A stretch of DNA of 64,000 nucleotides from positions 80,296 through 144,295 of the forward strand of contig CAZTBI010000002.1 of NCBI GenBank assembly GCA_964612055.1. Reading direction: 5' to 3'. Both the position numbers and the translations under genes were made by a program. Of this stretch, positions 6,441 to 55,400 are shown piece by piece; within the stretch, counting starts at the first letter, position 1, and every line of letters begins with the position of its first letter. The notes beneath the pieces are model-generated. The model saw only the letters and a program-made list of their open reading frames with translations. It had not been told where the DNA came from and did not search any database. The stretch is from an uncultured Bdellovibrionales bacterium. GTDB taxonomy: Bacteria > Patescibacteriota > Minisyncoccia > Moranbacterales > UBA1568.

Positions 6441-6445
6441 AGTCT

Positions 6446-6670: not shown

Positions 6671-6719
6671 AGGGAATATTTTTTGTTGACCTCGTTATTG
6701 TATCATCGCCCGATGATGC

Positions 6720-7751
6720 CTACAATAATTTTTCTTGATGATTTTTTGGCATCGCTATATCGAGATGCTTGTAACCATGTTCTGTGACGACGCGGCCACG
6801 CGGAGTGCGAGCCAGGAATCCGAGCTGGATCAAGTACGGTTCGTAGACGTCTTCGATGGTCTGTATCTCTTCGCCAGTAACGGCCGCGAGTGCCTGGATA
6901 CCGGCGGGACCACCTTTGAACTTATGGATGAGGGTGTGAAGAATGTGACGGTCAGTTGGTTCGAGACCGAGATGGTCAATTTCGTACAGATCGAGCGCTT
7001 CACGGGCAAGGTCCCCGGAAATGGTAGGGACATCTTTTACTTCCGCATAATCGCGGACGCGTTTCAAAATGCGATTCGCCACGCGGGGAGTTTGGCGGCT
7101 ACTTCTGGCAATCTCTTCTGCTCCTGATACATCGAGACCAATACCAAGAATACCCGAGGAGCGCTTTACGATCTTTTCGATATCTTCCGGAGTGTAGAAT
7201 TCTAGTCTGTGAGTCGAGCCAAAGCGATTGCGCAGGGGATTGGAAAGCGATCCCAGTCTGGTAGTGGCACCAATCAGGGTGAAGCGGGGGAGATCAAGCT
7301 GGATGGTTCGGGCGGCTGGTCCTTTGCCGATGATGATATCGAGTTTGTAGTCTTCCATGGCTGGATACAAGACTTCTTCGATCATTTTATTGAGTCGGTG
7401 AATTTCATCAATAAAGAGGACGTCACCGGGTTCGAGATTAGTGAGGATAGAGCCGAGGTCACCTACTTTTTCGATGGCCGGTCCCGAAGTCACCTTGATA
7501 CCGACACCCATTTCTTTGGCGATGATGTGAGCAAGAGTTGTTTTTCCGAGTCCTGCTGGACCATAGAGAAGCACGTGATCAATATTTTCAGAGCGTTTCT
7601 TGGCGGCTTGAATAAAGATATCGAGATGGCGCTTGATCTTGTCCTGGCCAATATATTCTCCGAAATTTTGTGGCCGAAGGGTGTTATCCAGGTTCTGATC
7701 TTCAGCAGCCTTTTCTGGCTCTAGAGGGGAAGAAGTTTCAGCGTGAATCAT
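6720..7751 (-). CDS. ruvB: Holliday junction branch migration ATPase RuvB
   Basis: Walker [12 protein letters not shown], sensor motifs and a RuvB C-terminal domain. Confidence 0.95.
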
Positions 7752-36782: not shown

Positions 36783-36806
36783 TCTTTATTCGTAGATTTT
36801 CTTCTT

Positions 36807-37184
36807 ATGGTAGCAAATAAATATGTTCTTGTTGTTGAGGACGACCCGTTTTACTCAAAGATTTACAAGACCAAGTTGGCCAAGGAAAAGATAGAGTCGC
36901 AAATCGTGAGTAACGGTAATGAGGCCTTGAAAGCGGTGCAAGCTCTTGCGCCAGGCCTTATTTTGCTTGATCTTATTATGCCAGGGAAAGATGGCTTCGA
37001 GACCCTAGCAGAGCTAAAAAGTGATCCAGCGCTTCAGGGCATTCCTGTGATCGTGCTTTCAAACTTGAGTCAGGAGGAAGATATTCAGCGTATTATGGAT
37101 CTTGGAGCGGCAGAATACTTAGTCAAAGCCAATGTTCCGATTCAGGAAGTTATTGATAAAGTGAAGCATAATCTCGGGCTGTAG
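36807..37184 (+). CDS. Single-domain response regulator (CheY-like receiver)
   Basis: 125 aa: VLVVEDD, phospho-acceptor D in LLDLIMPGKDG, K in LVKAN. Confidence 0.85.
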   Translation: MVANKYVLVVEDDPFYSKIYKTKLAKEKIESQIVSNGNEALKAVQALAPGLILLDLIMPGKDGFETLAELKSDPALQGIPVIVLSNLSQEEDIQRIMDLGAAEYLVKANVPIQEVIDKVKHNLGL

Positions 37185-37190
37185 GATTTT

Positions 37191-38888
37191 ATGAAAGATA
37201 TCCTCACGCATGACGAGCTGAAAATGCTCTTGCTCGATGCTGGAGTAGTCGAGGAAAAAGATTTGGAGCTAGCCGAAGAACGGCTCAAAAGTGAAGGGGG
37301 AACATTTTCTCAGGCTGTCTTGTGGTACAACTTAGTCTCAGATGAAGAGCTTGGCAAATTGATAGCTGATGCTCTTCATGTACCTTTTGTTGTCTTGGAG
37401 CAGAAGTTCATTTCCAAAGAAGTACTTGAGATAGTGCCGGAAGTGGTAGCAAGAAAACACCGGGTGATTGCTTTTGCTCTCGATACCGAGGGAGTCCATG
37501 TCGCTATGACTGATCCTCGGAATCTTGAAATGCAGAGTTTTTTGGAAAAAAAGACGGGCCTTCCGGTACGAGTCTATCTGGCCATGGAGCGTGACATGGA
37601 AAATGCCTTTATGTTGTATCGGCAGGAAGTCGCTGAAGCTTTTGAAGAGCTCATCTTGTCCGATATCAAGGAAGCCGGAAAAGAGAGTCATGAGACTGAC
37701 CCGCCTATCATCCGCATTGTTGATACACTGCTCTCGTATGCGTATCAGAATCGCGCCTCGGATATTCATCTTGAGCCTCGGGAGCGCGATATGTTAGTCC
37801 GGTTTCGTATTGATGGTGTGCTCCATGACATCGTCAAGCTTCCGCCCGAACTGCACCCACAAATTATTTCTCGTATCAAAGTACTTTCTAAGCTCCGTAT
37901 TGATGAGCACCAGACACCTCAGGATGGTAAGGTCAGTTTTCCTATCGAAGGAAGTGAGGCGCTTGATGTTCGTGTTTCAATCATTCCAACGACTGAGGGG
38001 GAGAAGGTGGTGCTCCGTCTCCTCTCGGAGCGGTCTCGGCAGTTTTCTTTGACGAATCTTGGCTTTTCTTTTCAAGGGCTTGATCTAGTGAAGGCAGCTT
38101 ACGAGAAACCGTACGGCATGATTCTCGTCACTGGACCAACGGGTTGTGGTAAAACGACAACACTGTACTCTATTTTGAAGCTTTTGAACCGACGCCATGT
38201 GAATATCGTGACTATTGAAGATCCGGTGGAATATGATATGGAGGGCGTCAATCAAATTCAAGTAAATGCCGAAGCAAAGCTGACTTTTGCCACAGGGCTT
38301 CGGAGTATTCTTCGCCAAGATCCCAATGTGATCCTGGTAGGAGAAATTCGTGATAACGAAACAGCGGATATCGCCATTAACCTTGCCATGACGGGACACT
38401 TGGTGCTCTCGACGCTCCATACGAATAATGCTGCCACCGCTATCCCACGACTCATCGACATGGATATCGAACCGTTCCTTATTTCCTCTACCACGAACGT
38501 GATTGTGGCACAACGCCTCGTGCGAAAGATCCACCAGGCCTGTCGTGTCAGTGAAGAGGTGCCGAGTACGGAGCTTGCTCTTCGGGTAGGTGCAGAGATG
38601 TTCGAGAAAGTTTTCGGAAAGCCATCACCAGAAAAAAGCATTCGCCTCTATCATGGCAAGGGGTGCAAAGCGTGCCACGATACTGGTTACGAAGGGCGCA
38701 GTGGTATATTTGAAGTCTTGGTACTGAGTGATGATATTCGTAAGGCTATTGTAGATCGTCGCGATGCCAATATCATCGAGGGGCTCGCGGCAGCATCTGG
38801 AATGCGGACGATGTTTGAGGATGGTCTTATAAAAGTTCAAGAAGGAGCGACAACGATTGATGAAATTTTGCGTGTCACCAAGGAATAA
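37191..38888 (+). CDS. pilB: Type IV pilus assembly ATPase PilB (copy 2)
   Basis: 565 aa, T2SSE_N domain, Walker A GPTGCGKTTT, only 3 of the 4 zinc-motif Cys retained. Confidence 0.9.
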   Translation: MKDILTHDELKMLLLDAGVVEEKDLELAEERLKSEGGTFSQAVLWYNLVSDEELGKLIADALHVPFVVLEQKFISKEVLEIVPEVVARKHRVIAFALDTEGVHVAMTDPRNLEMQSFLEKKTGLPVRVYLAMERDMENAFMLYRQEVAEAFEELILSDIKEAGKESHETDPPIIRIVDTLLSYAYQNRASDIHLEPRERDMLVRFRIDGVLHDIVKLPPELHPQIISRIKVLSKLRIDEHQTPQDGKVSFPIEGSEALDVRVSIIPTTEGEKVVLRLLSERSRQFSLTNLGFSFQGLDLVKAAYEKPYGMILVTGPTGCGKTTTLYSILKLLNRRHVNIVTIEDPVEYDMEGVNQIQVNAEAKLTFATGLRSILRQDPNVILVGEIRDNETADIAINLAMTGHLVLSTLHTNNAATAIPRLIDMDIEPFLISSTTNVIVAQRLVRKIHQACRVSEEVPSTELALRVGAEMFEKVFGKPSPEKSIRLYHGKGCKACHDTGYEGRSGIFEVLVLSDDIRKAIVDRRDANIIEGLAAASGMRTMFEDGLIKVQEGATTIDEILRVTKE

Positions 38889-38908
38889 TTTTTTCGACAT
38901 TCTATAAT

Positions 38909-39952
38909 ATGGTTTCCCATCTTGAGAAGTTGCTCTTCACCAGAGAATTGGCAGTGCTCTTAAAGAGTGGCGTGCCACTCGGAGAAGCGCTCGAATCTTT
39001 GAAAGATAAGACGGGTAGGGGGTCACTCCGTAAGGTTATTGAGGGGCTCTTGGCTGATATAGAGAATGGCCAGTCTTTCTCTCAGGCGCTCGCTCGCTTT
39101 CCGAAAGTTTTCGATGCTCTTTCGGTGAATCTGGTAAAAATTGGTGAAACCTCCGGAACCCTCAAGGAAAATCTTGATTTCTTGGCTCACCAGCAAGAGA
39201 GTTCTTACACACTGCGTAAAAAGATTCAGGCTATTTTACTCTATCCGACCGTTGTTTTTGGTATGGCACTGCTCCTCTCAGCTTTGATTAGTGTTTTTAT
39301 CTTGCCCAAGCTTATTCGTCTTTTTGAATCATTTCATGTGACCTTGCCGTGGACGACGCAGGTATTGCTTGCCGTCGCGCATTTTATGCAGTCTTACGGC
39401 ATCCTCTTTTTCTCAGTGCTCTTTCTTTTCATACTGGTTTTCCGATTTACGGTAGGGCTCTCCTTTGTCCGTCCGTATTGGCACGCGCTTCTCTTGCGTC
39501 TGCCTGTTTCAGGAGAGCTCTCTCGTTATATTGCTATTGCTCACTTCTGTCGCGATGTTGGAACGATGCTAAAGAGCAGCCTTCCTGTTTTGGAAGCTCT
39601 GACAGTTGAGGAGCAGGTCATGGAGAATCGCGCCATGGCTCGTTTGGTGAAGGGGCTTGCTGTAGCTGTTTCTCAAGGGAAAACGCTCTCCGATGAGCTC
39701 ACAAAAGCATCCTACGCTGTTATTCCAGCAATCGCAGTGAAGATGATTGCCTCAGGCGAAAAGACAGGGAAACTTGATGAGACACTCTTGTACCTCGAAA
39801 GTTTTTTTGAAGCAGAGGTTGATCGCAAGATAAAAAATATGACTGTCTTGTTTGAGCCAATACTCCTTCTCGTCATCGGGGGTATTGTGACTTTCCTCGC
39901 CCTCGCTATCTTGACACCCATCTACTCCCTGACAGGATCAGTGAAACGGTAA
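38909..39952 (+). CDS. pilC: Type IV pilus inner-membrane platform protein PilC (GspF family)
   Basis: 347 aa with GspF-repeat organisation and 3 TM segments. Confidence 0.85.
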   Translation: MVSHLEKLLFTRELAVLLKSGVPLGEALESLKDKTGRGSLRKVIEGLLADIENGQSFSQALARFPKVFDALSVNLVKIGETSGTLKENLDFLAHQQESSYTLRKKIQAILLYPTVVFGMALLLSALISVFILPKLIRLFESFHVTLPWTTQVLLAVAHFMQSYGILFFSVLFLFILVFRFTVGLSFVRPYWHALLLRLPVSGELSRYIAIAHFCRDVGTMLKSSLPVLEALTVEEQVMENRAMARLVKGLAVAVSQGKTLSDELTKASYAVIPAIAVKMIASGEKTGKLDETLLYLESFFEAEVDRKIKNMTVLFEPILLLVIGGIVTFLALAILTPIYSLTGSVKR

Positions 39953-39975
39953 GAGAATATTGTCCTTGAGATATT

Positions 39976-40434
39976 ATGAAGCTTTCTGGCTTTACACTGA
40001 TTGAAGTGATCCTTATGATCGCTCTCATGATTTTCATCGGTATCATCGCTTCCCCTTTCTATGGGAACTTTTTGTTTGGACAGGAAGCGGATAGGGCCGC
40101 TACCGAACTTCGGGAAAGTCTCACGAAAGCCCGTTTTTACAGCATGATGGGAAAGGGGAATGATCAGTGGGGCGTAGCGTTTGATACCAATCGCATTATT
40201 CTCTTCAAGGGTAGTTCCTTCGGTGGTCGTGACCCAGTGTTTGACGAATCATATCCACTTCATGATCTGGTGACTTTGACAGGACTCAGTGAAGTTGTTT
40301 TTGATCGAGGGACGGGTGCGTCAAGTAGTCAGCCAACAATCACCATTACTCTGTATGGGAATAGTGACACGCCGACGACGCACACGCACACACTGACAGT
40401 GAATGCCGCTGGCGTTGTTGATGAGACTCTCTAG
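39976..40434 (+). CDS. Prepilin-type (pseudopilin) protein
   Basis: N-terminal class III signal G^FTLIEVIL. Confidence 0.8.
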   Translation: MKLSGFTLIEVILMIALMIFIGIIASPFYGNFLFGQEADRAATELRESLTKARFYSMMGKGNDQWGVAFDTNRIILFKGSSFGGRDPVFDESYPLHDLVTLTGLSEVVFDRGTGASSSQPTITITLYGNSDTPTTHTHTLTVNAAGVVDETL

Positions 40435-40440
40435 CAATAT

Positions 40441-40908
40441 ATGAAAACTTTTTTTCGTGGATTTTCTACACTCGAGATCCTCCTTGCTGGAGCGGTGTTT
40501 TCGGTATTTTCATGGGGAGTGATTGAGGTGACCCTGACCGCTCTTCAGGCAGATCGTTTGGGGCGAGAAACAACAGTAGCAACAGGGTATGCTGTAGAAG
40601 GTCTTGAGGCAGTGCGAGCGATCAAGGAGGAAAATTTCGATGATCTGGTACCAACAGATGCTACCGGCATAGCAAAGCAAGACGGATTCTTTGTTTTTGA
40701 CGGAACGGAGAATGTTTTTGACGGAATATATACTCGGACCATTGTGATCGAAGCTGGGAAGCGAGACGAGGGTGGCAATATCACGGAGGGTGACGGGAGT
40801 GATGATGTCGACACGGTCCGCGTCAGGGTGACGGTATCTTGGCAGCTCAGTCCAACGCGCAACGATTCAGTGGTACTCGAAACGTATTTCACTCGTTGGC
40901 ATATCTAG
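40441..40908 (+). CDS. Prepilin-type minor pilin
   Basis: N-terminal G^FSTLEILLAG. Confidence 0.75.
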   Translation: MKTFFRGFSTLEILLAGAVFSVFSWGVIEVTLTALQADRLGRETTVATGYAVEGLEAVRAIKEENFDDLVPTDATGIAKQDGFFVFDGTENVFDGIYTRTIVIEAGKRDEGGNITEGDGSDDVDTVRVRVTVSWQLSPTRNDSVVLETYFTRWHI

Positions 40909-40911
40909 GGT

Positions 40912-41439
40912 ATGAAAAGTATGAAAAAAAGACTTCGCGGGTTTACCTTTATTGAAGTGATACTGTATATCGGTCTGTTCTCGCTTCTTGGAACGGCACT
41001 CCTTACTTTTGCTTGGGATATCCTCAAACTTTCTCATGAGGGGAACACGGAACGTCTCGTGACAGAAGGGGGGCGCTTTGCGGTAGAGCGTATGAAGTAC
41101 AGTATGAGACAAGCAGCCGGTGTTGATACCGAGGCCTCTGTTTTTGATAGCGCCGATGGAAGGCTGGTCATTAATCAGTTCGGGAGCAGTGATACACTCA
41201 CCTTCGAACTTCAGAATGGGAAAGTAGTGATGCAGGAATCAGGGCAAGATGCTATCGTGCTTCAGCCTCAGAATACTCAGACGACAGCGCTCCTTTTTGA
41301 ACGATCCTCCCCCTCTGATCAATCAGTGGAGTATATTACAGTGACACTCACTCTCGAAACTTTACTTCAGGCGCCGCTCGAGTACGCTTCTAGTACGACT
41401 TTTGAAACAGGGGTGGTCATAAGAAATCTTGGTCTATGA
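40912..41439 (+). CDS. Prepilin-type minor pilin
   Basis: N-terminal RG^FTFIEVILYIGL. Confidence 0.75.
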   Translation: MKSMKKRLRGFTFIEVILYIGLFSLLGTALLTFAWDILKLSHEGNTERLVTEGGRFAVERMKYSMRQAAGVDTEASVFDSADGRLVINQFGSSDTLTFELQNGKVVMQESGQDAIVLQPQNTQTTALLFERSSPSDQSVEYITVTLTLETLLQAPLEYASSTTFETGVVIRNLGL

Positions 41440-41828
41440 AACAGGTACATCTTCGTGGCTATATAGCGATCATGACAGTGCTGGCACTGTTGGTGTTTTC
41501 GCTTTCTCTCTTGATAAGCGTCCCATACCTTTCCATTGGAGGTATTCAGGAGGCAGCTGTTTTTTCGGAGAGCGAGACAGTTTACGCCGCTCTCGAAGGA
41601 TGCGCAGAAGACGCCCTGCTTTTGAGTGTGAGAGACGAAAACTATACAGGCGGTACCTATACGTATCTCGGAGCAACGTGTGAAGTAAGTATTGAAAAAA
41701 ACGATCCATTGTGGACACTCTCTCTTACGGGGAGTAGGTACAGTGTGACACGGGTATTGCGGGTTATCGTAGAGCGTACGCCTGGTACCCCTGGAACACT
41801 GACACTTCAAAGTTGGCTGGAAGAGTGA
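41436..41828 (+). CDS. Minor pilin-like protein (GspK/PilX-like, lacks Glu5)
   Basis: N-terminal RGYIAIMTVLALLV hydrophobic segment. 4-bp overlap with the upstream pilin gene. Confidence 0.5.
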   Translation: MKQVHLRGYIAIMTVLALLVFSLSLLISVPYLSIGGIQEAAVFSESETVYAALEGCAEDALLLSVRDENYTGGTYTYLGATCEVSIEKNDPLWTLSLTGSRYSVTRVLRVIVERTPGTPGTLTLQSWLEE

Positions 41829-41869
41829 AAAACCGGTACAATAGAGGAGCCTATTGAAGATTTTTACGT

Positions 41870-42634
41870 ATGTTTTCAAAAAAACACCCAGCGCTTTTTA
41901 TCAGTAGTGGCTTTATAGAACCAGGAAACGTTACTGTTTCCAAAGAACTTCTTTTTGAGGGGAGCGAGGCGTTGCCATATGACAGAGAAACGTTTCGTCA
42001 GACACTCAGTCAGGCCCTTACTTCTCCTTACAAAAAAGCGCGCCTTGTTCTTTCTGAGGAACTCGTTTATGTAACGACCCTTCTGTTTCCGGTTGGTACG
42101 AAGCTCACTCGAGAACTCGTGAGAAGTCGGGCGGAGGAGACGATCCCGGAGGATCTTCGTGCCACGGCATGGGATTTTCGCACCATGCATTACAAAGAAA
42201 CGATCGGAGAAGCAGGGAGTGTCTTGGTACAGGTAGCGGTAGTAGAAGGGGGATTTTCTGATATTTTAAGCAAAACGTTGGCGGAGCAGGATTTTTCTGT
42301 TGAAGCGATTTTACCGGAATCCTCGGTTCTTGCCTCCCTCGTCGCTGACAAGGAGGGGGTGACAGTGATTGTGGAACAAGATCGTGAACGAATACTCTTT
42401 ATTGCCTGTGAGTCGCATCTCGTTCTTTCTACTCAGACGAAACAAGGAGTATTGGAGTACCCTTCCCTCAAGGCATTCCTCCTCTTTGTTTCCAGTGTCC
42501 TTGAGAAGAAAATAGAGAGTATCATTCTTTCGCATGTTACTGATGCAGAATTGAAAGACAGACTTGAAAAGGATGGGTATATGTACGAAGAGCAGTCGCT
42601 CAATCCTTTCCTTTGCTCGGGGCATTTTTTCTGA
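41870..42634 (+). CDS. Hypothetical pilus-locus protein (possibly PilM-like assembly factor)
   Basis: 254 aa, no TM helix. Position between minor pilins and major pilin. Function inferred from context only. Confidence 0.3.
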   Translation: MFSKKHPALFISSGFIEPGNVTVSKELLFEGSEALPYDRETFRQTLSQALTSPYKKARLVLSEELVYVTTLLFPVGTKLTRELVRSRAEETIPEDLRATAWDFRTMHYKETIGEAGSVLVQVAVVEGGFSDILSKTLAEQDFSVEAILPESSVLASLVADKEGVTVIVEQDRERILFIACESHLVLSTQTKQGVLEYPSLKAFLLFVSSVLEKKIESIILSHVTDAELKDRLEKDGYMYEEQSLNPFLCSGHFF

Positions 42635-42737
42635 AAGTTTCCGGGAAAGATGAGCGAGTGCTCAATTTGAATACTTTTTCCAAGGCTCCAGAGAGATCAT
42701 GGTGGCAGAGAGTCTTCCAAAAAGAGCGCCATAAGGC

Positions 42738-42766
42738 TTAGACAATTCTTGGGAAACTGGTATCAT
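42738..42766 (+). promoter_or_regulatory. Putative promoter of the major pilin gene (TTAGAC-N17-TATCAT)
   Basis: Hexamers at 42738-42743 and 42761-42766. Confidence 0.35.
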
Positions 42767-42794
42767 ACAAATAGGCTTTTCTTTCCGGTTTTTT

Positions 42795-43277
42795 ATGCAG
42801 CACAAAAATATTTTCTCATCCCGCAAGAAGGGTTTCACATTGATTGAAATCCTTTTAGTGATTGGCATCATTGCTGTTTTGGCGACAGTGGTGATTGTTT
42901 CGCTTGATCCGGCCACTCGTTTTCAAAATGCCCGCGACGCCAGGCGTTTAGCCGATATCCAGAGCATTCTTTCTGCGACACAGCAGTATATCGTGGATAA
43001 CAGAGGCTCTCTCCCGAGCGGACTCGACACTACAGAGAAACAGATTGGTACTGGTACCTCGGGCTGTACTCTGACGGATGGTATCTGTAGTGCCAATACT
43101 ACGTACTGTCTTGATTTAGAGACGACGCTAGCGCCTTATTTGAAGGACATGCCCTATGATCCCGAGAACGGTAGTGCCGCTCAAACTCACTACACGGTCG
43201 TTGTTGATAGCAACAATATCGTAACAGTGCGCGCTTGCGATTCTGCCGATACGACTATTGATGAGGTCTCGCGATAG
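42795..43277 (+). CDS. pilA: Type IV major pilin (PilA-like)
   Basis: KG^FTLIEILLVIGIIAVLATVV class III signal with Glu5; C-terminal Cys pair. Confidence 0.85.
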   Translation: MQHKNIFSSRKKGFTLIEILLVIGIIAVLATVVIVSLDPATRFQNARDARRLADIQSILSATQQYIVDNRGSLPSGLDTTEKQIGTGTSGCTLTDGICSANTTYCLDLETTLAPYLKDMPYDPENGSAAQTHYTVVVDSNNIVTVRACDSADTTIDEVSR

Positions 43278-43297: not shown

Positions 43298-44371
43298 ATG
43301 AAGCAGTTACTGCGCCACCTTTCTTTTTTCGGCCGTTACTTCTTTCCGAGGGCTGGTTTATTGCTTTTTTTTGTTTTGCCAGCCAGTACAAATTACCAAC
43401 TCAAGGATTTTGGCTACGGTGGCGGCGGTACGTCGAGTAGTGCTTCGAGTAATTATGCTATCGAGGGCATTGTTGGAGAGCAGGATAGTACAAAACTGAG
43501 TGGCACGACCTACGATCTTGGTCCAGGATTAGAATTTACCAATCAGGCCAATGTGCCTCCAGCTCCGACTTTCACCAATCCGAGTAGCTACTATAATAAA
43601 CTAAAAATAGTTTTGAGTACGGGCAGTAATCCGAGTGATACCAAGTTCGCCATTGCTATCAGTACTGATAGCTTTGTGAGTGATACTCGTTATGTCCAAG
43701 ATGACGATACCGTCGGAAGTGCTCTTGGTGCTGAGGACTATCAAACCTATACCAACTGGGGCGGGGCAAGTGGAGAACTTATTATCGGCCTCCTCTCAAA
43801 TACCACTTACACGGTAAAGGTCAAAGCTATGCAGGGGAGTTTCACGGAGACGGGCTATGGGCCAACGGCATCGGCGGCTACAATTAGTCCAACGCTGACA
43901 TTTGATATTGATGTAGCCGCTACCGATGTCGATAATAGCGTGACGACACTTGATTTGGGGAGTCTCCTTGCTGGTACCGTAGTAGATAGTGCTGAGAAGA
44001 TCTGGGTGGATTTTATAACCAATGGTGAGGGGGGTGGCCGGGTGTATGTGTATGGCAGTAACGCTGGTCTTGCCAGTACTCGCGCGGCCTACACTATTAG
44101 TGCTGTGACGGGGAATCTGACTGCTTTGACGGAAGGATTCGGTGCTCAGGGTTCGACAGCGACTAATGGTCTTTCGGAAGCGACACTTTATGATCAAACA
44201 GGGAATACGGTTGGTACGGTGGATACGGCGATTCGGGAAATATTTACTGCCACGGCTCCCACAACCAGCGGTCGAGGATCATTTCTCCTCAAAGCAAAGT
44301 CTGGAGCGGTGACACCGGCTGCGAATGATTATACTGAAACGTTGACGGTTATTGCTTCTGCGAGTTTCTAG
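43298..44371 (+). CDS. Secreted Thr/Ser/Gly-rich surface protein, WxL-like C-terminus (paralog 1)
   Basis: Signal peptide. Ends ...ANDYTETLTVIASASF, matching the distal WxL motif pattern Y-T-x-T-L-T-W with W replaced by V. Confidence 0.6.
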   Translation: MKQLLRHLSFFGRYFFPRAGLLLFFVLPASTNYQLKDFGYGGGGTSSSASSNYAIEGIVGEQDSTKLSGTTYDLGPGLEFTNQANVPPAPTFTNPSSYYNKLKIVLSTGSNPSDTKFAIAISTDSFVSDTRYVQDDDTVGSALGAEDYQTYTNWGGASGELIIGLLSNTTYTVKVKAMQGSFTETGYGPTASAATISPTLTFDIDVAATDVDNSVTTLDLGSLLAGTVVDSAEKIWVDFITNGEGGGRVYVYGSNAGLASTRAAYTISAVTGNLTALTEGFGAQGSTATNGLSEATLYDQTGNTVGTVDTAIREIFTATAPTTSGRGSFLLKAKSGAVTPAANDYTETLTVIASASF

Positions 44372-44495: not shown

Positions 44496-45539
44496 ATGGT
44501 ACGAACTGAAATTCAAAGAACAGTCATGCTGGGAATCTTCTCTCTCTTGGTTGTCCTCGCGCTTCCGATATTTTTCATCAACAAGGCCCAGGCAGCAGGC
44601 TTGACTCAGGCCATGGTGCGTCCTGATCGCCTGGCTGCTTCTACCACGACTGGTGGTATGGTATGTGCTAAATCTACGACCACCGCTGTTGAGACAACAG
44701 TCAAAGTGACGTTTCCCACAGGCTTTACCGTAAACAGCACTGCCTCCAACTGGACAGTCACGACGACAGATATCCCTGCCGATGCTACTGCCTGGATTGG
44801 TATCGGGACCGCCTCCCTGGTCTCTGGTCAGGATGTCACGTTTCCGAGTGGTAACATGGTTGTAGGGACACTGTATTGCTTCAACTTTGCTGCCTCAAGT
44901 ACTCTTACGACGAGTACTGCCGGGAATGACAAGACAGGAGTTATTACAACGCAGCTGGCTGGTCCGACGACTATCGATAGTTCGAGTTACGCGCTCTCTA
45001 TTGTTTCGAATGATCAGATTGTTGTGTCGGCTACTGTCCCAGCCACCTTTACTTTCAGCTTGAGTGCCAACACGGACTCCATCGGTACGTTGTCAACAAC
45101 CACCGCCTCTTCTTCTGGTGTGACTGCTACTATCGCGACCAATGCCGCTGCTGGTTGGGTGGCGTGGGCAAAGAGCGCGAACGCTGCTTTGAACTCGGCT
45201 TCAACTGGAGCGACTATTGCGACAGCAGGTACTCTCAATAATGCTCCAACAGATCTCGCCTCCTCTACTGGCTATGTCCTGGATGTGAACGTTACGACAG
45301 ACAGTGGTACCGGTACCGGTACAGTCTCTCAGGCTTCAGATTATGGCGCAGAATACAATGGCACCAACTCGACTTCAGGAGGAACGCTTTCAACTACCTT
45401 TCAGCCGATTGCCGCTTCGAGTGGTACAACCGATGGTGATGTGCTGACTCTCATTGAGCGAGCAAAGATCAGCGCTGTCCAGGCTGCCGCTACCGATTAT
45501 ACCGATACTCTGACAGTTGTTGCTGCCGGTCGTTTCTAA
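44496..45539 (+). CDS. Secreted Thr/Ser/Ala-rich surface protein, WxL-like C-terminus (paralog 2)
   Basis: Signal peptide (cleavage after AQA). Ends ...ATDYTDTLTVVAAGRF; proximal ATFTFSL motif. Confidence 0.6.
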   Translation: MVRTEIQRTVMLGIFSLLVVLALPIFFINKAQAAGLTQAMVRPDRLAASTTTGGMVCAKSTTTAVETTVKVTFPTGFTVNSTASNWTVTTTDIPADATAWIGIGTASLVSGQDVTFPSGNMVVGTLYCFNFAASSTLTTSTAGNDKTGVITTQLAGPTTIDSSSYALSIVSNDQIVVSATVPATFTFSLSANTDSIGTLSTTTASSSGVTATIATNAAAGWVAWAKSANAALNSASTGATIATAGTLNNAPTDLASSTGYVLDVNVTTDSGTGTGTVSQASDYGAEYNGTNSTSGGTLSTTFQPIAASSGTTDGDVLTLIERAKISAVQAAATDYTDTLTVVAAGRF

Positions 45540-45647
45540 AAGGGATTTAAACCGAAAAGATAGGCCTCCTTCCTTATGAAGGAGGTTTTTGTTTTCCCTC
45601 CCAGTAGCCATTTTTTAGAGGAATGCGCTATAATAGAAACATCTTTT

Positions 45648-46730
45648 ATGAAAATCTCCCATTCTTCCTTATTGAATAAGACGGCTTTGCTCGGCCTGTT
45701 TTTTGTCTTCTCTTTCCTCTTGCCACTTCAAGCACGAGCTCAGACGAACCAAGATTCGATCGAAGCGGGTCTCCGCCTTGTGACCTCTCCATTGCCTATC
45801 AGCTTGGTGACCGAGCCAGGGACCTCGATCTCAACTGATCTCAAGATAAAGAATGGTGGTGCAGCAGAAGAGCGTCTCCAGGTGACACTCATGAAATTTC
45901 GGGCCTATGAAGAGTCTGGAAAACCACAGCTTTTAGAGCGAGAAGCTGGAGACGACTTTCTTGATTGGGTTCATTTTTCAGAATCAACCTTTACGCTCGC
46001 TCCGAACGAATGGAAAACAATTACCGCTACCTTTGAGGTGCCACCTACCGCCTCCTTTGGTTACTACTATGCTTTTGTGTTCTCTCGATCCGGGGAAGGG
46101 ACAATGCTCCAGGAAAGAGAAACGGCCATTGTTGGCGGTACGGCCGTTCTCGTGCTCCTCGAGGCTCGTGTTCCCAATGCTCTGAGACAGGTAGAAGTTG
46201 CTGAGTTTTCTCTCGACAAAAAGTTCTACGAGTTTCTTCCAGCGACCTTCTCCGTACTGTTGAAAAACTCTGGTAATGTCCATGTGGCACCTCGGGGCAA
46301 CATCTTCATTGATCAGGGAACAACACATGACGTTGCTATTCTCGAGATTAACCACGAGAAGGGGAGTATTCTTCCTCAATCAAACCGTGCCTTTGAGACA
46401 ACTTGGGAAGATGGTTTTCCGCTCTATGTCGACAAGCTTGAAGATGGAAAAACGGTGCGTGATGAAGAAGGAAATATCATGCAAACTCTCAAGTGGGACT
46501 GGAACAATGCCTCCAAGCTTCGTTTTGGTAAGTACACCGCCAAGATGCTCTTGATCTACGATGACGGACAGCGTGATATCCCGATCGAAGGAGAAGTGTC
46601 TTTCTGGGTGGTGCCTTGGAGGATTATTGGACTGGCTCTCTTCAATATACTGCTCATCGTAGGGTTGATCCTCTACGTGATTCGTCTGCGTCGTAAGTTA
46701 AAGCGTTTGAACTATGAAGAAAAGAAATAA
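45648..46730 (+). CDS. Membrane-anchored cell-surface protein, DUF916/DUF3324-like architecture (copy 1)
   Basis: Start chosen at MKISHSS. Signal peptide ...LPLQARA, a beta-rich ectodomain of about 300 aa, C-terminal TM helix plus basic tail (RLRRKLKR). Confidence 0.65.
   Translation: MKISHSSLLNKTALLGLFFVFSFLLPLQARAQTNQDSIEAGLRLVTSPLPISLVTEPGTSISTDLKIKNGGAAEERLQVTLMKFRAYEESGKPQLLEREAGDDFLDWVHFSESTFTLAPNEWKTITATFEVPPTASFGYYYAFVFSRSGEGTMLQERETAIVGGTAVLVLLEARVPNALRQVEVAEFSLDKKFYEFLPATFSVLLKNSGNVHVAPRGNIFIDQGTTHDVAILEINHEKGSILPQSNRAFETTWEDGFPLYVDKLEDGKTVRDEEGNIMQTLKWDWNNASKLRFGKYTAKMLLIYDDGQRDIPIEGEVSFWVVPWRIIGLALFNILLIVGLILYVIRLRRKLKRLNYEEKK
45704..46628 (+). repeat. Tandem direct repeat copy 1 (925 bp, 100% identical to copy 2)
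   Basis: Identical to 46776-47700 at a 1072-bp period. The ORF track shows identical sub-ORF translations in all frames. Confidence 0.9.
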
Positions 46731-47799
46731 AAATTTCCTTAGAGAGAAAACGATAGGTGCAATTTTTGTGCTTACTGTCTTCTCTTTCCTCTTGCCACTT
46801 CAAGCACGAGCTCAGACGAACCAAGATTCGATCGAAGCGGGTCTCCGCCTTGTGACCTCTCCATTGCCTATCAGCTTGGTGACCGAGCCAGGGACCTCGA
46901 TCTCAACTGATCTCAAGATAAAGAATGGTGGTGCAGCAGAAGAGCGTCTCCAGGTGACACTCATGAAATTTCGGGCCTATGAAGAGTCTGGAAAACCACA
47001 GCTTTTAGAGCGAGAAGCTGGAGACGACTTTCTTGATTGGGTTCATTTTTCAGAATCAACCTTTACGCTCGCTCCGAACGAATGGAAAACAATTACCGCT
47101 ACCTTTGAGGTGCCACCTACCGCCTCCTTTGGTTACTACTATGCTTTTGTGTTCTCTCGATCCGGGGAAGGGACAATGCTCCAGGAAAGAGAAACGGCCA
47201 TTGTTGGCGGTACGGCCGTTCTCGTGCTCCTCGAGGCTCGTGTTCCCAATGCTCTGAGACAGGTAGAAGTTGCTGAGTTTTCTCTCGACAAAAAGTTCTA
47301 CGAGTTTCTTCCAGCGACCTTCTCCGTACTGTTGAAAAACTCTGGTAATGTCCATGTGGCACCTCGGGGCAACATCTTCATTGATCAGGGAACAACACAT
47401 GACGTTGCTATTCTCGAGATTAACCACGAGAAGGGGAGTATTCTTCCTCAATCAAACCGTGCCTTTGAGACAACTTGGGAAGATGGTTTTCCGCTCTATG
47501 TCGACAAGCTTGAAGATGGAAAAACGGTGCGTGATGAAGAAGGAAATATCATGCAAACTCTCAAGTGGGACTGGAACAATGCCTCCAAGCTTCGTTTTGG
47601 TAAGTACACCGCCAAGATGCTCTTGATCTACGATGACGGACAGCGTGATATCCCGATCGAAGGAGAAGTGTCTTTCTGGGTGGTGCCTTGGAGGATTATT
47701 CTCGGAACACTCGCACTCGCACTCTTTGCTTTCTTAGGGGTTCGTTCGACACTTCAGAATATCTGGAAGAAAATAGCGAAAAAAGATACGGTATCATGA
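46714..47799 (+). CDS. Membrane-anchored cell-surface protein, DUF916/DUF3324-like (copy 2, different N- and C-termini)
   Basis: Identical central 308 aa. Distinct signal peptide and a distinct C-terminal TM/tail (GTLALALFAFLGVRS...). Confidence 0.65.
   Translation: MKKRNKNFLREKTIGAIFVLTVFSFLLPLQARAQTNQDSIEAGLRLVTSPLPISLVTEPGTSISTDLKIKNGGAAEERLQVTLMKFRAYEESGKPQLLEREAGDDFLDWVHFSESTFTLAPNEWKTITATFEVPPTASFGYYYAFVFSRSGEGTMLQERETAIVGGTAVLVLLEARVPNALRQVEVAEFSLDKKFYEFLPATFSVLLKNSGNVHVAPRGNIFIDQGTTHDVAILEINHEKGSILPQSNRAFETTWEDGFPLYVDKLEDGKTVRDEEGNIMQTLKWDWNNASKLRFGKYTAKMLLIYDDGQRDIPIEGEVSFWVVPWRIILGTLALALFAFLGVRSTLQNIWKKIAKKDTVS
46776..47700 (+). repeat. Tandem direct repeat copy 2
   Basis: See copy 1. 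Confidence 0.9.
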
Positions 47800-48731
47800 A
47801 GTTTTTTTCATTTTTCATTTTTTCATTTTTTGCCCTTACCCTTGTTTCTGTTCCCGGGAAGAGCATTGCTCAGAGTGAGCAAAGAGGTCTTTCGGTGAGC
47901 CCGGTTTTTCAAGAAGTTGTTTTTGGAGCAGAAGATGTCCAGGCTGAATTTTCGGTGACTTTGAAAAACGAGACAAAGGAAGCGGTAACCATGTATCCCT
48001 CGGTCGTTGATTTCGGCTCTTTGGATGAGAGCGGGGGAGTGGCTTTTCTTGGACAATCTGAAAATTTGGAACGCAAGTATTCTTTGGCTTCATGGATGCG
48101 ACCAGAAAAAGACGTGCTGTCTCTCGATCCTGGCGAAACGGAAGAATTGCAGGTAGTGATAGAAAACAGAGAAACGCTCTCACCGGGCGGACACTATGGA
48201 GCGGTACTGTTTAAAATAGGCGATGAAGCTGGTGTTTCAGAAAAAGAGAACCAAGTCGCTGTTCAGCAACTGGTGTCGGTGCTTGTTTTTGCCAAGAAGC
48301 AGGGTGGAGAGGTGTATCACCTTGAACTCGGGGAAAGTACCTGGTCTAAAAATCTCTTTGCCACGCCTTCTCGAGTAGAGCTGCGCTTCCAAAACCCTGG
48401 GAACATTCATGTTGTGCCACGAGGCACAGTGACACTGACGGATCCTTCGGGGAGAAAAGTAGCTAAAGGTGTTATCAATCAAGAATCAGGGTTTTTACTT
48501 CCGGAAACACTCCGTACCTACCCGGTGAAACTCCAAAACCTTTCCCGAGAGTTCATTCCAGGAAAATATACCCTCACCATAGCCTATCGTTACGACGGAA
48601 AAGAGGATGTCGTAGTGAGAGAAATGAGTCGCGTCATTTTCCCTTGGCAGGGATTGGCAGGGATTGCCTGTATATTAGCAATTTTGTATGGGAGACGTCT
48701 CTTGAGAAGAAAGTCTTCCTTTGGAAAGTGA
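47778..48731 (+). CDS. Membrane-anchored cell-surface protein, divergent third DUF916-like paralog
   Basis: Start chosen at MKFFSFFIF. Signal peptide, same domain order (NxxVxxxPRG, KYTxxxxxxYDDG), C-terminal TM plus RRLLRRK tail. Confidence 0.6.
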   Translation, partial: EKRYGIMKFFSFFIFSFFALTLVSVPGKSIAQSEQRGLSVSPVFQEVVFGAEDVQAEFSVTLKNETKEAVTMYPSVVDFGSLDESGGVAFLGQSENLERKYSLASWMRPEKDVLSLDPGETEELQVVIENRETLSPGGHYGAVLFKIGDEAGVSEKENQVAVQQLVSVLVFAKKQGGEVYHLELGESTWSKNLFATPSRVELRFQNPGNIHVVPRGTVTLTDPSGRKVAKGVINQESGFLLPETLRTYPVKLQNLSREFIPGKYTLTIAYRYDGKEDVVVREMSRVIFPWQGLAGIACILAILYGRRLLRRKSSFGK

Positions 48732-48777
48732 ATCACTTTCCAAAGCATCTTTTAGTGAGGGAAAACAAAGAAAAAGC

Positions 48778-49458: not shown

Positions 49459-52400
49459 TTGAGTCGGGGTGAGCCGACGCAGATGTTTTTTTGTATGCCA
49501 TTCTCACCGAGAAATCTCAAAACAAAAAAAATATACAACGGCTACAAGAATTTTTTCTTGCTGCCCCTCTTTTTTACAGGTATTGCTCTTGTAGCGTTTT
49601 TTTCGTCTCCTGATGTTTTCGCCGCTACTGGTATCAACGAGGAAATTAGTTTCCAAGGGAAGGTAGTCAATGATGATGGTACCAATGTTGCCAATGGTAA
49701 CTACGATTTTGTTTTCAAGCTCTACACCGTCTCTTCAGCTGGGACAGCAGTCTGGACCGAAACTCGAACGGGTGGCAATCAGGTGACGGTGACTGACGGT
49801 ATTTTTCAGGTCAATCTTGGTTCGGTGACGACTTTGCCAGGATCAGTTGATTTCAATACCGATAACATCTATCTCGGTATCGAGTTTAATAGCGATGGTG
49901 AAATGTCACCCCGGGTTCATTTTACGGCTGCCCCCTATGCCATGAATGCGGCCAAGGTAGGAGGGCTGACGGTGACTGATACTACGGGTACGCTGACGAT
50001 TCCGAATGGCAAGACGATTTCTTTTGCTGATGATTTTACAACGTCTGGAGCTTTTGCAACGACACTGACTGCGACGGCGACAACTAACGTCACGCTCCCA
50101 ACGACAGGGACACTAGCGACATTGGCAGGGAGCGAAATATTCACGAACAAAACTATTGGTTCTACCGGGCTGGTCTTTTCTGGCGCGACGACGGATATTA
50201 CCACTGCCTCAAACGAAGATCTGACTCTTACGGCAGCTGGTTCAGGAGATATCGTGTTGGTACTTGATTCAGGTACTTTTGTGAATCTGACTGGTGGCGC
50301 TGATGGAACAGCGGCGTTGACACTGGCGGCTGGTGATCTGACGCTCACTGACGGTGATCTCATTGTGACGGCTGGGGATGTGAATTTCACTTTGGATGTT
50401 GCCGATACATTTAATATCGTTAAGTCTGGGGCCAACGCTGGTGATGTCGCCAACATCACTGCCTCGTCGGTCAATGCTCTTGATGGCTTGCAGATTGATC
50501 TCACAGCGACGACTGATTCTGGAGCAGACAATGTCACGGGTCTTGATCTTGCCTGGACAGAATCTGCGGATGCTGATGTCTGGACCGCTCTCAATCTGCC
50601 GAATACCACAACAACGAATTCCTCCACGAGGGCTTTTGTTATAGGGACGGGATATGACACTATTCTTGATACCGCTGCCCTCGATATTTCTGGAGCAGGA
50701 GTGATTTCTGGGGCGACGGGAATTTCGACGACTACTCTTACGGCATCATCCACTATCGCTGCCAATGGCGGTATTACCTTCGATGCTTCCACAGATACGT
50801 TGGGTGCTTTTACAATGGCTGGCACACTCGATGCCAATGCTAATATCCTGACCAATATTGGAAACTCGGGTACGGATTTCGTAGCCTCGACGGGCGCACT
50901 GACCTTGGCTGGAGTCTTGACGGCCAATGGTGGTATTAGTTTGTCGGCCAGTCAGTCTCTCACAGCAGTAGCTCTTTCATACATTGACCTTGGATCTATC
51001 ACTCATGGTACGACTGCGGTGCAGGGTCTGCGTCTCCCTCAAGCGGCTTCGGCTAGTCCGTCGAGCCCGAGTTCGGGCGAGGGCTATCTCGCTTGGGATG
51101 CGAGCGGCAATCAACTCATTTACTATACGGGAAGTGCTTGGTCCACGATTTCAGGTGGCAGTGGCTACAATCTGATCAAGGATGAAGCAAGCAGCCTAAC
51201 CGCTCGAACGACGTTAGCTTTTCTTGGATCAGGAGTGTCCTGTGCCGACAATGCTTCACAGACAGAGTGTACTATTTCTGGCGGTGGTTCGAGTGATTTA
51301 CAAACCACGTATGGCAATGATGCTGATGGATCTGATGCGACGATTTCTCTTACGACGGCTGATGATTCACTTATTTTTACAAACCCAACCTCCTCTGGTA
51401 CCGACAGCGCCTTCCTCCTCCAAATTTCTCAGCAGCACACGACTGCTGGCGTCGTAGCGCTCGATATCACACAGTCATCCAGTGGAGCAAATGGTCTCAA
51501 TCTTACTGCGAATGCTATCGATACCGAGACGGCTCTAGCAGTGACAGCGAATACGCTCACTTCTGGCTTCGGTCTCAGTATCGCTTCCTCATCAGCGGCT
51601 CTTACGGGAGCATTGCAATCGATCACACTTTCCGGTTCCAATGCCAGTAACACGGGTTCGCTCCTCGCCCTTGATAACACGGGCACCTCCAATGCCAATA
51701 CTTCGCTCTACATCAAGCACTATGCGACTGGTACCAACAATCTGGCCTTCCGCATCGATGACGTCTCTGGTGATACCACGCCGTTTGTGGTTGATGGTAC
51801 CGGGGCAGTAGGTATCGGAACGACAGCACCAACGAGTTTGTTCGAACTCTATGGTACTGGAGCGGCTGACATTGTCGGTACCCTGACCGCCCCTGACGCG
51901 ACGTACGATCCCATTTTCAAATTCCGCACCGGTTCGACTCCGGCCGTTATGTTCTCGATGGGTGTTGATAACTCTGATTCAAGTAAATTCAAGATCTATT
52001 CTGGTGATGGCCTAGGAAGTGGTGATGAATTCGTCATTGATGCCGGTGGCGTGACGACTATTGCCAACCTCAATCTTGGAGCTACCAGTTTTGACGAAGA
52101 CGCCGGTATTGTTTCTTGGATGGATATGTCGGTGACTGCATCATCAGCAGTAGACAGTATCCAGAGTTATTCGGCGCTCATTGATGGCAATAGTCTTCTC
52201 ACGGTTTACGCTGAATCTGATGGCGCTGACGGTATTCAGGATAAGCGTATTCAGATTGGTGAGGGCGGAGCTGGCTCGACGGGCCCAACGCTTTTGGCTC
52301 TCGATGTGAAATCAGATACGAGCGATCCAGCGGGTTTCGAGGGTGCCATGTACTACAACACGTTCGATAATGTTTTCCGCTGTTACCAGAATAGTGGCTG

Positions 52401-55400
52401 GACGAACTGTATTGGGTCGGGTGGTTCATCGGATCTTCAGGCAACGTACGGTAATGATGCCGACGGTTCCAACGTCACTATTTCCCTGACCTCGGCGGAT
52501 GACGGCATCGTTTTCAGTAACCCAGCTTCTTCTGGTACTGACAGCGCCTTTACCTTCAAAGTAGAACAGCTGAATACCGGTATCGATAACGACGCTTTGT
52601 ATATCGACAATCGTGGAACAGGGGATGGGCTGCGGATTGATGATGAATCTGGCGATACCACGCCGTTTATTGTCGACAAAGATGGTCGGGTGGGTATCGG
52701 GACGAGTTCCATTAGCGCTGCCGCTGCGACGGAACGTCTCCTTCAGGTTGGGTCAGAAACAAACCGAGGAAATAGTGTGACATACGGTGAAGTGGTAACA
52801 AAAGGTCAGCGCGACATCACGGCGCTTACCAATATTAAGGATATCTATGTGTACGACACCACGGCTGATAGTGATGGTGGTCGCTGGATTGACTGGGCGA
52901 CGACCGATAAATTGTCGTGGTATACGGAGACGCTTGATGATGGCCCGAATGACCCGTGCAATATTGCCTCTGATGATCGCTGTTACAAGGCCTCGTTCCC
53001 GCGCAAGGCTATTTTGGTCGTAACGACCGATGCTCTCTATATTTTCGATGCCCAGGACAACACCTTGTGGATGAAGTTTAGTCAGAACGCCTCTGGATAT
53101 GCGCTTGGTATTGATACTAACAATGATCCTTCGTCAGTGAGCGCTTTGAACGGGGTGATCTATGTGGGAACCAATGGAGTCTCAGCTGGAGGGCTTTATG
53201 CATTTGATTTTACGACAGATCGGATGTGGAAATATGACTCTACCGATCGTAGTCAAGGTGATGTTGGTATAGGAAGTCGCAACAGCGCTGTAACATATAA
53301 TTCTGATAATAATACCCAGTTTGATCTTGGTAATGATACCGGTTGGGATGCTGTGAATGATGTATCAGTTGCTACGATGCAGTTTAGTACCACGGCCATT
53401 GCTATCGGTACTACCACGAACATTGGTCCGGGCAATGGTTCAACGCTCGTGGCTGTGGCTACTGATTCAGGACTGGGAGTTATTAATCTTTCTAGACAAC
53501 GTTATGTCGCTTATTCGGATGCTACGGATGATAACTACAATGCCGTCGTAATTACACGGACCGCTAAACTGTATGGCTTGAATAATACCCTAGACCAAGC
53601 AGAAAAGTGGATTAATATTGATCAGGATCAGGTGAGCGAAGAAAATGGAACGCCTGATAAGGTGTGGGATCAAGCTTCTACGCCTGCGCTTTCTAAAACT
53701 CAGCCTGCAATCAGTAGTGGGGCACCAGATGCGCTCGAGGTAGTGGAGCGTGGCTCGCTTGCGGACGGTGGTTTGCTTTCGACAGCTGCCGCTGCTGGTT
53801 CTTCAGACCTTATCTATGTTGGTACTGACCAGGGTTTGACAGAAATCCATGATCATTCGACCCCAGCTTCTGGTTGGTCAAAATTTTTCAATACTACTAA
53901 GCAGTCAGCGCTCATGCCGGGAACTATCAAGCGTGCCCATATGATGGATGATGCTTCTGGAGATTTGACAGATGATAGTTTCCGAGTAAATACCATGGCG
54001 CCCATTGGGGGCGTAACCTATGGAATCAATGGTGCGCGAGGAAAAGCAGTGACGCTCAATGGTACGAGCGGATTCTTCTGTTCAGATAATGGTGGAGCAA
54101 CTTGTGCTGTAGATACTGATGACAATATGAGCACAACCGCTTGGAATATGCAGATGTGGTTTAAGCATTCTGTAACTCAGGCAGGGACTGATGTTTTGTA
54201 TAGCCGCTGCTACAATACAACCCCGGCTGCTGCCGCTGCCTGTGTAACAGTCTATATGACGAGCACTGGTACTATGGTTGCTGCTTATGATGATGATGCT
54301 ACTTGGACAGCTTACTCCTCGTACGATGCTATGCTCACCTCGACACGGACGTATAATGACAATCAATGGCATCATATGGTTATGGCTCGTGATAACGCCA
54401 ATGACCTCCATTTCTTTATTGATGGCACGCCGATTGTTTCAAATAATGCGACTGGATCGACGCTGACACTTGATGCTAGTCAAATCGTATCGATCGGAGC
54501 GGATTGTAGCGTAGGAGTGGCCTGTGCGACAGGGGCCAATTTCTGGGATGGTTCCATAGATGACTTTACCTTTAGTCAGGGTACGACAACAGTAGATGCG
54601 TTGACGGGAGCGCAGGCACGCCGTCTCTATAATGATGCTCGGCCTCTTTTGAACAAAAAAGTAATCACGGTTACTGATGCTACTACCGCTACCTCTACCA
54701 CGATAGGTGATTCAGGAGAAACATGGATTCCGAATGAATTTTCGAGTCAGATTGTAGAAATTACGAGCGATACCGGAGCGGGTCAGACACGTCGCATCGT
54801 TGCTAATACGACAACAACATTAACTGTTTCCCCAGCCTTTTCGACAGTACCAGACACGACTTCAGATTTCGAAATCAATCCGGAAATTTTGTACGGCGCT
54901 TCGAATACTGTGACAGCCATCGGTGTCACGGGAGAGTCAGCCATGGGCGAAGCGCGTCAGTTGTGTGTAGGTACGAATAGCACGACTGACACGGGTGGTG
55001 TCACGTGTCTTAACCATCAAGCTGGGCCGAACCTGGTAGCTGACATGTATCACGGAGACTCGGAACAGACCGATGATAGTGGTGCGGAATGGACGGGCAC
55101 GGACTATGATGATATCCAATCTATTGATATCTCCGGTCGTGCGATGGTAATTGGCTCCATGGCGCACCTCTGGACAGAAACGGAAGATGTTCGTCTAGGA
55201 CAAGGAATGGATTATCTTTCCAATAAGATATTTGATTTGACTAACGTGGTAAAGAACCTTGGTATGCAGACCCTTGCTGGAAGTGGTAGCATGGAAATTG
55301 GTTTAACCGGTGGCGCTGACTTGGCTGAGCATTATTATTCGAACGAAGTTCTTACTGCGGGAGAGGTGGTAGCGATCGACAAGAGTCTTGTCGCGGGGAT

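Follow-up and report, generated by a model that had tools for sequence, protein, structure and literature searches.

We analysed a 64-kb window (64,000 nucleotides (nt), positions 80,296 to 144,295 of contig CAZTBI010000002.1, assembly GCA_964612055.1) from an uncultured bacterium that GTDB places in the Moranbacterales (Patescibacteriota). It contains three consecutive genes for predicted surface proteins, here called A, B and C, and the first two of them share a long block of identical DNA. The genes and the parts of the repeat are as follows, in positions of the window:

45648..46730, + strand: gene A, alpha-type paralog of 360 amino acids (aa), with signal peptide, two beta-sandwich domains, transmembrane helix and basic tail ...LYVIRLRRKLKRLNYEEKK
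46714..47799, + strand: gene B, beta-type paralog of 361 aa, with the same ectodomain as A, followed by helix and tail ...FAFLGVRSTLQNIWKKIAKKDTVS
47796..48731, + strand: gene C, diverged third paralog of 311 aa, about 25% identical to A/B and of the same architecture
45704..46628, + strand: repeat copy 1, homogenised core, exactly identical to 46776-47700
46776..47700, + strand: repeat copy 2, homogenised core, exactly identical to 45704-46628
46629..46775, + strand: non-homogenised spacer of 147 nt, with the alpha helix and tail of A, then the N-terminal signal-peptide region of B

Genes A and B overlap by 17 nt (46714-46730), and the stop codon of B and the start codon of C overlap in ATGA. 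Exact self-comparison of the two repeat copies gave 0 mismatches over 925 nt at an offset of 1072, and the run could not be extended by one base at either end. A repeat finder reported this pair as the sole long repeat of the 64-kb window and found no inverted repeats in it; an exact match of 925 nt that is also the only long repeat of the window excludes chance. In each of the two genes, the tract takes in 308 complete codons (in gene B, residues 22-329); it spans the last 13 residues of the signal peptide and the whole ectodomain up to PWRII, with the 3' end of copy 1 lying 15 nt beyond the P of the conserved PWR motif. Outside the tract, A and B differ in the N-terminal parts of their signal peptides, in their C-terminal transmembrane helices and in their tails. 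The original prediction for this stretch had described a 925-bp repeat of 100% nucleotide identity that makes the central 308 codons common to both genes; its coordinates and the lack of mismatches were reproduced, and the number of codons and the divergence of the transmembrane and tail regions were confirmed. Its statement that the signal peptides differ applies to their N-terminal parts and not to their last 13 residues, which lie inside the repeat.

In a scan of GTDB, with one genome for each species, 79 loci were found, and each of them was then compared with itself. The same tandem genes with near-identical cores occur in about 20 related species, mostly metagenome-assembled genomes (MAGs) of Moranbacteria from independent assemblies, which is the outcome of the comparison with related strains that the original prediction had proposed. 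Named homologs of the A/B family are proteins from 'Candidatus Moranbacteria/Moraniibacteriota' MAGs. The tandem pair is also present in three relatives from independent sources, namely L001 from JGI, L002 from NCBI (GCA_018060865.1) and L003 from ENA. Exact core runs within these genomes measure 925 nt (L001), 898 nt (L002) and 852, 629 and 621 nt (L003), and between the genomes (window, L001, L002 and L003) the cores differ at 12-30% of their nucleotides. Tandem cores of 880-990 nt that are 99-100% identical were also found in L004, L005, L007, L008, L010, L015, L018, L030, L031, L032, L033, L035, L041, L042, L047 and L061, with three copies in L042. In amino acids, the cores differ by 5-45% between species. 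In the multi-copy genomes of Moranbacteria type, the core was without exception (21 of 21) 98-100% identical in amino acids within the genome, compared with only 10-36% for the tails and with 59-95% core identity to the best other genome. In the Saccharimonadia-type loci, which are the most distant ones, the pairs are 56-83% identical and the cores still group by genome at 68-83%; the cores of L081 and L062, when compared with each other, cluster by position, as expected of old paralogs without conversion. Many GTDB representatives with a clearly Moranbacteria-type locus (among L004-L082) are titled 'uncultured Bdellovibrionales', 'Gammaproteobacteria', 'Burkholderiaceae' or 'Limnocylindria'; such record titles are probably unreliable submitter labels.

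Three classes of C-terminal helix and tail can be distinguished, each of them conserved among species and orthologous by position:

alpha anchor class, motif ..LYVIRLRRKLKRL..
gamma anchor class, motif ..IPxxPALxVYFFMKWRMKK..
beta anchor class, motif ..FxFIGxRSTxxxxWRKxF.., always in the last gene, which adjoins paralog C

Tails of the same class are 28-97% identical across genomes (at least 50% in most pairs), and in some cases they stay alike where the cores are only 55-60% identical. The alpha tail of L041, for instance, is 70% identical to that of L001, and no other alpha-type core is more than 59% identical to the core of L041. Single-copy genomes with classifiable tails have the beta type. 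The nearest relative of the core was the paralog from the same genome for 55 of 57 genes. For the tails, the nearest relative came from the same genome in none of 55 cases and from the same class in 52 of 55, the latter count being partly circular, as the tail classes and the nearest-neighbour test use the same residues; the 0 of 55 and the conserved gene order are independent of this circularity. The positional orthology of the anchors among species shows that the paralogs are older than the split of at least 20 species. As the cores of such old paralogs are nearly identical in each genome, they must have been homogenised repeatedly, i.e., they show concerted evolution. Judged from their sequences, genes A and B are ancient tandem paralogs and not recent duplicates.

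Homogenisation extends to synonymous sites. When the core of the window is compared with that of the sister species L001, 95 synonymous and 20 non-synonymous differences are found (synonymous divergence dS 0.74; ratio of non-synonymous to synonymous divergence dN/dS 0.04), whereas the paralogs within the genome differ at no site, synonymous sites included, in either the window or L001. This identity at synonymous sites cannot be explained by protein-level selection. Within genomes, the pooled difference amounts to roughly 0.1% at most, which, set against the dS of 0.74 between sister species, suggests that a site is converted orders of magnitude more often than it mutates. The nucleotide identity of the window to L001 is about 85% in the core, about 85% in the upstream gene and 92-95% in the 147-nt spacer. 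The idea that the core evolves faster than its surroundings was rejected, as core and upstream gene are alike in this comparison and the spacer is more conserved.

The limits of the identical tracts are informative as well. In 19 of 23 pairs the exact run ends 6-31 nt after the P of PWR, at the ectodomain/membrane junction, which is the point where the class-specific anchor sequence begins; in L030, L041, L042 and L062 it ends earlier, owing to single substitutions or to a partial patch. The 5' end is variable, usually within the signal peptide, and lies upstream of or at the start codon in L010, L032, L041 and L047. Two loci are mosaics: in L003, A and B share 629 exact nt beside a stretch of 81-96% identity and B shares 852 nt with the third copy, and in L062 a 363-nt exact patch lies within a pair that is 77% identical in amino acids. 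These mosaic tracts indicate conversion. They are difficult to reconcile with a very recent tandem duplication in the window and independent recent ones in each relative, in which case youth alone would explain the identity of the copies. Such duplications would account for the absence of differences over 925 nt and for copy numbers of 1 to 3 among species; however, the flanks, which comprise the helix, the tail and a portion of the signal peptide, differ strongly between A and B yet are positionally orthologous across species, a simple 1072-nt unit would also repeat the 147-nt spacer after copy 2, where it is not repeated, and twenty-odd independent events with the same end-points are implausible. 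The recent tandem duplication that gave the original prediction its title is refuted by paralogs older than the divergence of at least 20 species, and we assign hardly any probability to an explanation of this kind.

We conclude that genes A and B very probably undergo long-lasting concerted evolution by gene conversion that is confined to the ectodomain; gene C is outside the conversion. Ongoing gene conversion had been one of the options of the original prediction and is strongly supported by the ancient anchors, the mosaics and the homogenised synonymous sites. Likewise, its description of two surface proteins with identical ectodomains and different membrane anchors was correct, and this combination is a conserved, defining feature across the relatives. 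Homologous recombination between the directly repeated ectodomain cores would keep overwriting one copy with the other in a non-reciprocal manner, a process that presumably depends on the recombination machinery of the cell. Tracts would end where homology ends: their 3' limit would be the ectodomain/membrane junction, and their 5' limit would vary in position, within the signal peptide or upstream of it. The anchors specific to each class would therefore never be homogenised and would be under purifying selection of their own. Occasional unequal exchange probably occurs alongside conversion and would add to the variation from one to three copies among species. The outcome would be one ectodomain on two (elsewhere one or three) membrane anchors, produced from the translationally coupled unit A-B-C. 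The repeat had also been proposed as a substrate for copy-number variation, which is plausible in view of the 1, 2 or 3 copies among species and conjectural within a population.

Apart from the partial circularity of the tail test, several points weigh against this conclusion. Many related species have a single beta-type gene, and the pair is not universally kept. L009 and L012 (genes at 5977-7038) are close relatives of the two-copy L002, yet have a single beta-type gene. We considered that these two could be hybrids with an alpha signal peptide and a beta tail, left by deletion or collapse between cores, and rejected this because their signal-peptide region matches beta slightly further than alpha, which is weak evidence; they look like genuine beta-only loci. 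A signature of GC-biased conversion was not detected when core GC content and GC content at third codon positions (GC3) were compared with the locus background in converting versus single-copy genomes (Mann-Whitney p = 0.92-0.99). Finally, the copy number in the window (at least two) and its content of single-nucleotide polymorphisms (SNPs) are those of the assembly, and bubble popping may inflate exact identity in short-read MAGs, so the value of 100% could conceal a few real SNPs between the copies that were erased. In relatives whose contig names are suggestive of long reads, the tracts are 99.1-99.8% identical and not 100%.

The last of these points bear on the possibility that the second copy, or its perfect identity, was made by the assembler through repeat expansion, a strain chimera or the collapse of a diverged pair. 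Public contigs do break inside an A/B-type gene (L016, L021, L023, L050, L052, L055 and L082), L021 being a contig of 1112 nt and thus little more than a core, and a look-up of the exact proteins encoded by B and C in the gene-position collection found neither of them. The true copy number in the window may even exceed two. However, the 147-nt spacer joins a core end to a core start and encodes a conserved alpha tail and beta signal peptide (92-95% identical to L001), which means that at least two copies exist in the DNA. The same architecture was recovered in assemblies with NODE_ (SPAdes-like), k141_/k127_ (MEGAHIT-like) and contig_ (long-read-like, up to 652 kb) names from many projects, the assemblers being assigned by contig naming conventions. 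Among the long-read-like assemblies, the two copies of L041 differ by 2 substitutions in 952 nt, and L042 has three copies with 6 clean substitutions and additional homopolymer indels that resemble sequencing errors. Where copies do differ (L003, L042 and L030), the assemblies have retained the differences. Furthermore, L083 and L084, the Logan k=31 contigs from the source sample (SRR16481186 and SRR16481187), match the window at 100% identity. Each of them breaks off at 45733, after exactly 30 nt (k-1) of the repeat, which is the mark that a real branch of the read graph leaves. The k=31 contigs from four sequencing runs (L083-L086) all end in the alpha signal-peptide region, those of the related strains L085 and L086 at the homologous place. 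In the light of about 20 independent assemblies and of this branch signature, the assembly collapse or expansion that the original prediction had allowed for is very unlikely. The broken contigs suggest that the locus routinely breaks short-read assemblies of Moranbacteria; as these break or may collapse here, MAG copy numbers and single-copy calls are unreliable at this locus. Two homopolymer deletions of one base each, relative to the paralogs, interrupt the third copy of L042 (8097-9124); they are probably sequencing errors rather than a sign of a pseudogene.

Tandem-repeat surface proteins are also a typical substrate for programmed variation, in which the repeat would serve cassette switching, phase variation or a diversity-generating mechanism. 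Here, the copies are identical and nothing is varied, and the window has none of the inverted repeats that were searched for. Neither a recombinase nor a reverse transcriptase was seen among the neighbouring genes scanned, no Rfam element was found nearby, and the dN/dS given above is purifying and not diversifying. We regard the chance that the repeat serves such a programme as negligible.

Long-lasting, recurrent concerted evolution is reported to be rare in prokaryotes: Wang and Chen 2018 (PMC6053082) reported 26 genes across 682 species, using a criterion of at least five species. As in their cases, among them tuf, flagellin, psbA/psbD and amo/hao, the paralogs of the A/B family are closer to each other than to their orthologs, the duplication preceded speciation and many species are affected (here at least 20); as in those cases, the near-complete identity points to a process that is still under way. 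Unlike those cases, A/B is absent from the 26 genes, and no Patescibacteria appear in the tables of that study; the repeats are adjacent and direct, 147 nt apart, homogenisation is restricted to an ectodomain module, and the product is a surface protein and not a component of core metabolism or translation. A literature search for concerted evolution in Patescibacteria found nothing specific. In Salmonella tufA/tufB (Paulsson et al. 2017, PMC5485169), conversion tracts begin at any point within the homology and extend as far as its limits, and in the rRNA operons of E. coli (Gifford et al. 2020, PMC8022953) conversion occurs at 8.6e-6 per operon per donor per generation, far above per-site mutation. 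Both resemble the present case in non-reciprocal recombination, in repeats of about 1 kb or more and in tracts that extend to the end of homology. Their repeats are dispersed, the whole gene is homogenised and the rates were measured, whereas here the block is internal to the genes, the rate is only inferred, and the tandem arrangement leads one to expect deletion and amplification by unequal exchange as well.

The adjacent, near-identical flagellin genes flaA and flaB of Campylobacter are kept alike through intragenomic recombination and have gene-specific flanks, namely different promoters. In contrast to A and B, their gene-specific parts are regulatory and not anchor modules, and they belong to another protein family and phylum. 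The locus described here adds a clean case of concerted evolution in uncultured Patescibacteria. With conversion limited to the ectodomain and three ancient anchors kept distinct, it is a natural experiment on homology boundaries and on how selection partitions a gene. It also implies that phylogenies of the A/B family will falsely suggest many recent duplications.

The proteins belong to a family of Moranbacteria and other Patescibacteria with a signal peptide, two PapD/Ig-like domains, a C-terminal helix and a short cytoplasmic tail. An AlphaFold2 (AF2) model of the gene B product, built from a 33-sequence alignment (mean predicted local distance difference test (pLDDT) 81), shows a helix for the signal peptide, two domains of the beta-sandwich type and a C-terminal helix at residues 326-357. 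Searches against Pfam returned fn3_5 below threshold in 33 of 33 homologs of the A/B family and PF06030 weakly in 4 of 33. For the gene C family, 8 of 10 orthologs matched PF06030 (WxLIP_PGBD) at 16-25 bits, short of the cut-off of 27.3, and PF11797 had no match in the A, B or C families. NCBIfam gave no matches, and a profile search of the A/B family against PDB sequences found no WxLIP and nothing relevant, only a spurious match to dephospho-CoA kinase. In a fold comparison, PapD-like, ASH and MSP domains scored as well as WxLIP. The original prediction had called the two proteins DUF916-like; this holds only in the sense of a remote similarity below the Pfam threshold and of a resemblance in fold.

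WxL clusters encode a single WxLIP along with a pair of WxL proteins that have double Trp-x-Leu motifs (PMC10599100, PMC9772566). WxLIP proteins, composed of DUF916/PGBD, DUF3324/HBD and a transmembrane helix (Hassan et al. 2023, PMC10599100; PDB 9i1y and 9i25), are known from Firmicutes, whereas the present organism is a Patescibacterium. They share with A and B the signal peptide, two Ig-like domains, the C-terminal helix and a length of about 337-365 aa (360 and 361 aa in A and B). They differ in that A, B and C have no Pfam match at the gathering score and that the locus has no W-x-L or LPxTG protein: neither motif was found in P1, P2 (two upstream genes described below), A, B, C or D. The motif NQIDKxxxYFDLK was not seen in A, B and C on reading the sequences, for which no formal scan was run. 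The PapD-like chaperones CsuC, CfaA, YadV and FimC are soluble, periplasmic, usher-dependent proteins of diderm bacteria, whereas A and B are membrane-anchored and no usher is evident; sequence identity to them is 10-14%, and the resemblance is one of fold only. The A/B proteins fail the tests for WxLIP membership and may be distant relatives of WxLIP or PapD-type adaptors with two Ig domains. In function, they could be membrane-tethered WxLIP/PapD-like adaptors for the neighbouring secreted proteins.

The features that surround the A-B-C genes are the following:

43298..44371, + strand: P1, secreted protein of about 350 aa, upstream of A
44496..45539, + strand: P2, secreted protein of about 350 aa, upstream of A
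45562..45588, + strand: terminator-like hairpin after the stop codon of P2, from a consensus scan only
45605..45634, + strand: promoter-like TAGCCA-18-TATAAT, 14 nt before the ATG at 45648, a consensus match only
48719..48745, + strand: strong terminator-like hairpin overlapping the 3' end and stop codon of gene C, from a consensus scan only

The mechanical open reading frame (ORF) of gene A is 45576-46730. Because the terminator-like hairpin and the promoter-like site precede the ATG at 45648, and because orthologs keep the peptide MKI(S/P)H(S/P)SLLNKTALL from this position onwards, the true start is probably this ATG and the ORF start at 45576 is unused. The TATAAT context is kept in the related strains L085 and L086. 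The flanking consensus elements suggest that A-B-C is a separate three-gene transcription unit.

The gene order in the window is P1, P2, A, B, C, an ORF of about 200 aa, a 2473-aa surface protein and a beta-lactamase-family gene. The order P1, P2, A/B paralogs, C, ~200-aa ORF and very large protein is kept in L002 and L003; the beta-lactamase-family gene is found at that place in L002 only, and L003 has inserted genes and an 1148-aa protein. P1 and P2 are otherwise unrelated and have in common a C-terminal module of about 50 aa (about 52 aa at 38% identity; 44213-44368 and 45381-45536), which ends in DYT[ED]TLTV(I/V)A...F and may be a common anchoring or assembly strand. No match to P1 or P2 was found in Pfam or the PDB (for P2 including a profile search of PDB sequences), and the AF2 model of P2 was poor (pLDDT 47). 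P2 is tandemly duplicated in 15 of 73 related loci, and the likeness of its copies varies: 99.3% over 668 nt in L029 (3976-5889), 95.7% in L010 (2959-4856) and 80% in L005 (2658-4854). This variable homogenisation means that a neighbouring gene family also duplicates and converts in some species.

P1 and P2, as hypothetical clients or partners of the A/B/C proteins, enter into another explanation of the identity of the cores, in which homogeneity itself is selected and conversion is only the means: the different anchors would need an identical ectodomain, either for co-assembly or for a fast co-evolving partner such as P1/P2, and lineages that drifted would have been lost. That the pattern has lasted in 20 or more species, and in weaker form reaches the Saccharimonadia-type loci, is consistent with this, as are the conservation of tails within a class, the position of the genes in a conserved cluster with P1/P2 and the giant surface protein, and the enrichment of published long-lasting cases for members of complexes (PMC6053082). 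On the other hand, neutral conversion between 0.9-kb direct repeats 147 nt apart suffices, synonymous sites are homogenised too, a single copy is enough in many species, and conversion appears dispensable in L081 and L062, where the cores cluster by position. In addition, the interaction with P1/P2 is hypothetical, and the P2 model failed. We therefore regard selection for homogeneity as possible but unlikely, and retain concerted evolution by gene conversion as the explanation of the identical cores. Even more tentatively, the cluster could form a modular envelope system, in which one ectodomain on alpha, beta or gamma anchors provides adaptors or chaperones that assemble or hold P1, P2 and the 2473-aa protein on the surface and conversion keeps the ectodomains co-adapted to their partners; we consider this a rather doubtful proposal.

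Directly upstream of the surface cluster, 33545-43277 encodes a sensor of CHASE4/PAS type and a PAS histidine kinase, along with a small ORF at 36807-37184 (a Response_reg domain is present in its L083 counterpart). The region also includes a type IV pilus operon, which comprises a PilB-like T2SSE ATPase, a PilC-like T2SSF platform protein and several N-methyl pilins. The conserved, uncharacterised surface-protein cluster beside this operon is a candidate envelope or attachment apparatus in episymbiont-like bacteria. The gene of the 2473-aa surface protein (49459-56880) repeats internally at an interval of about 882 nt (51751-51794 and 52633-52676), and the peptide ...SSDLQ(T/A)TYGNDADGS..ISLT(T/S)ADD... 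is present in the protein twice.

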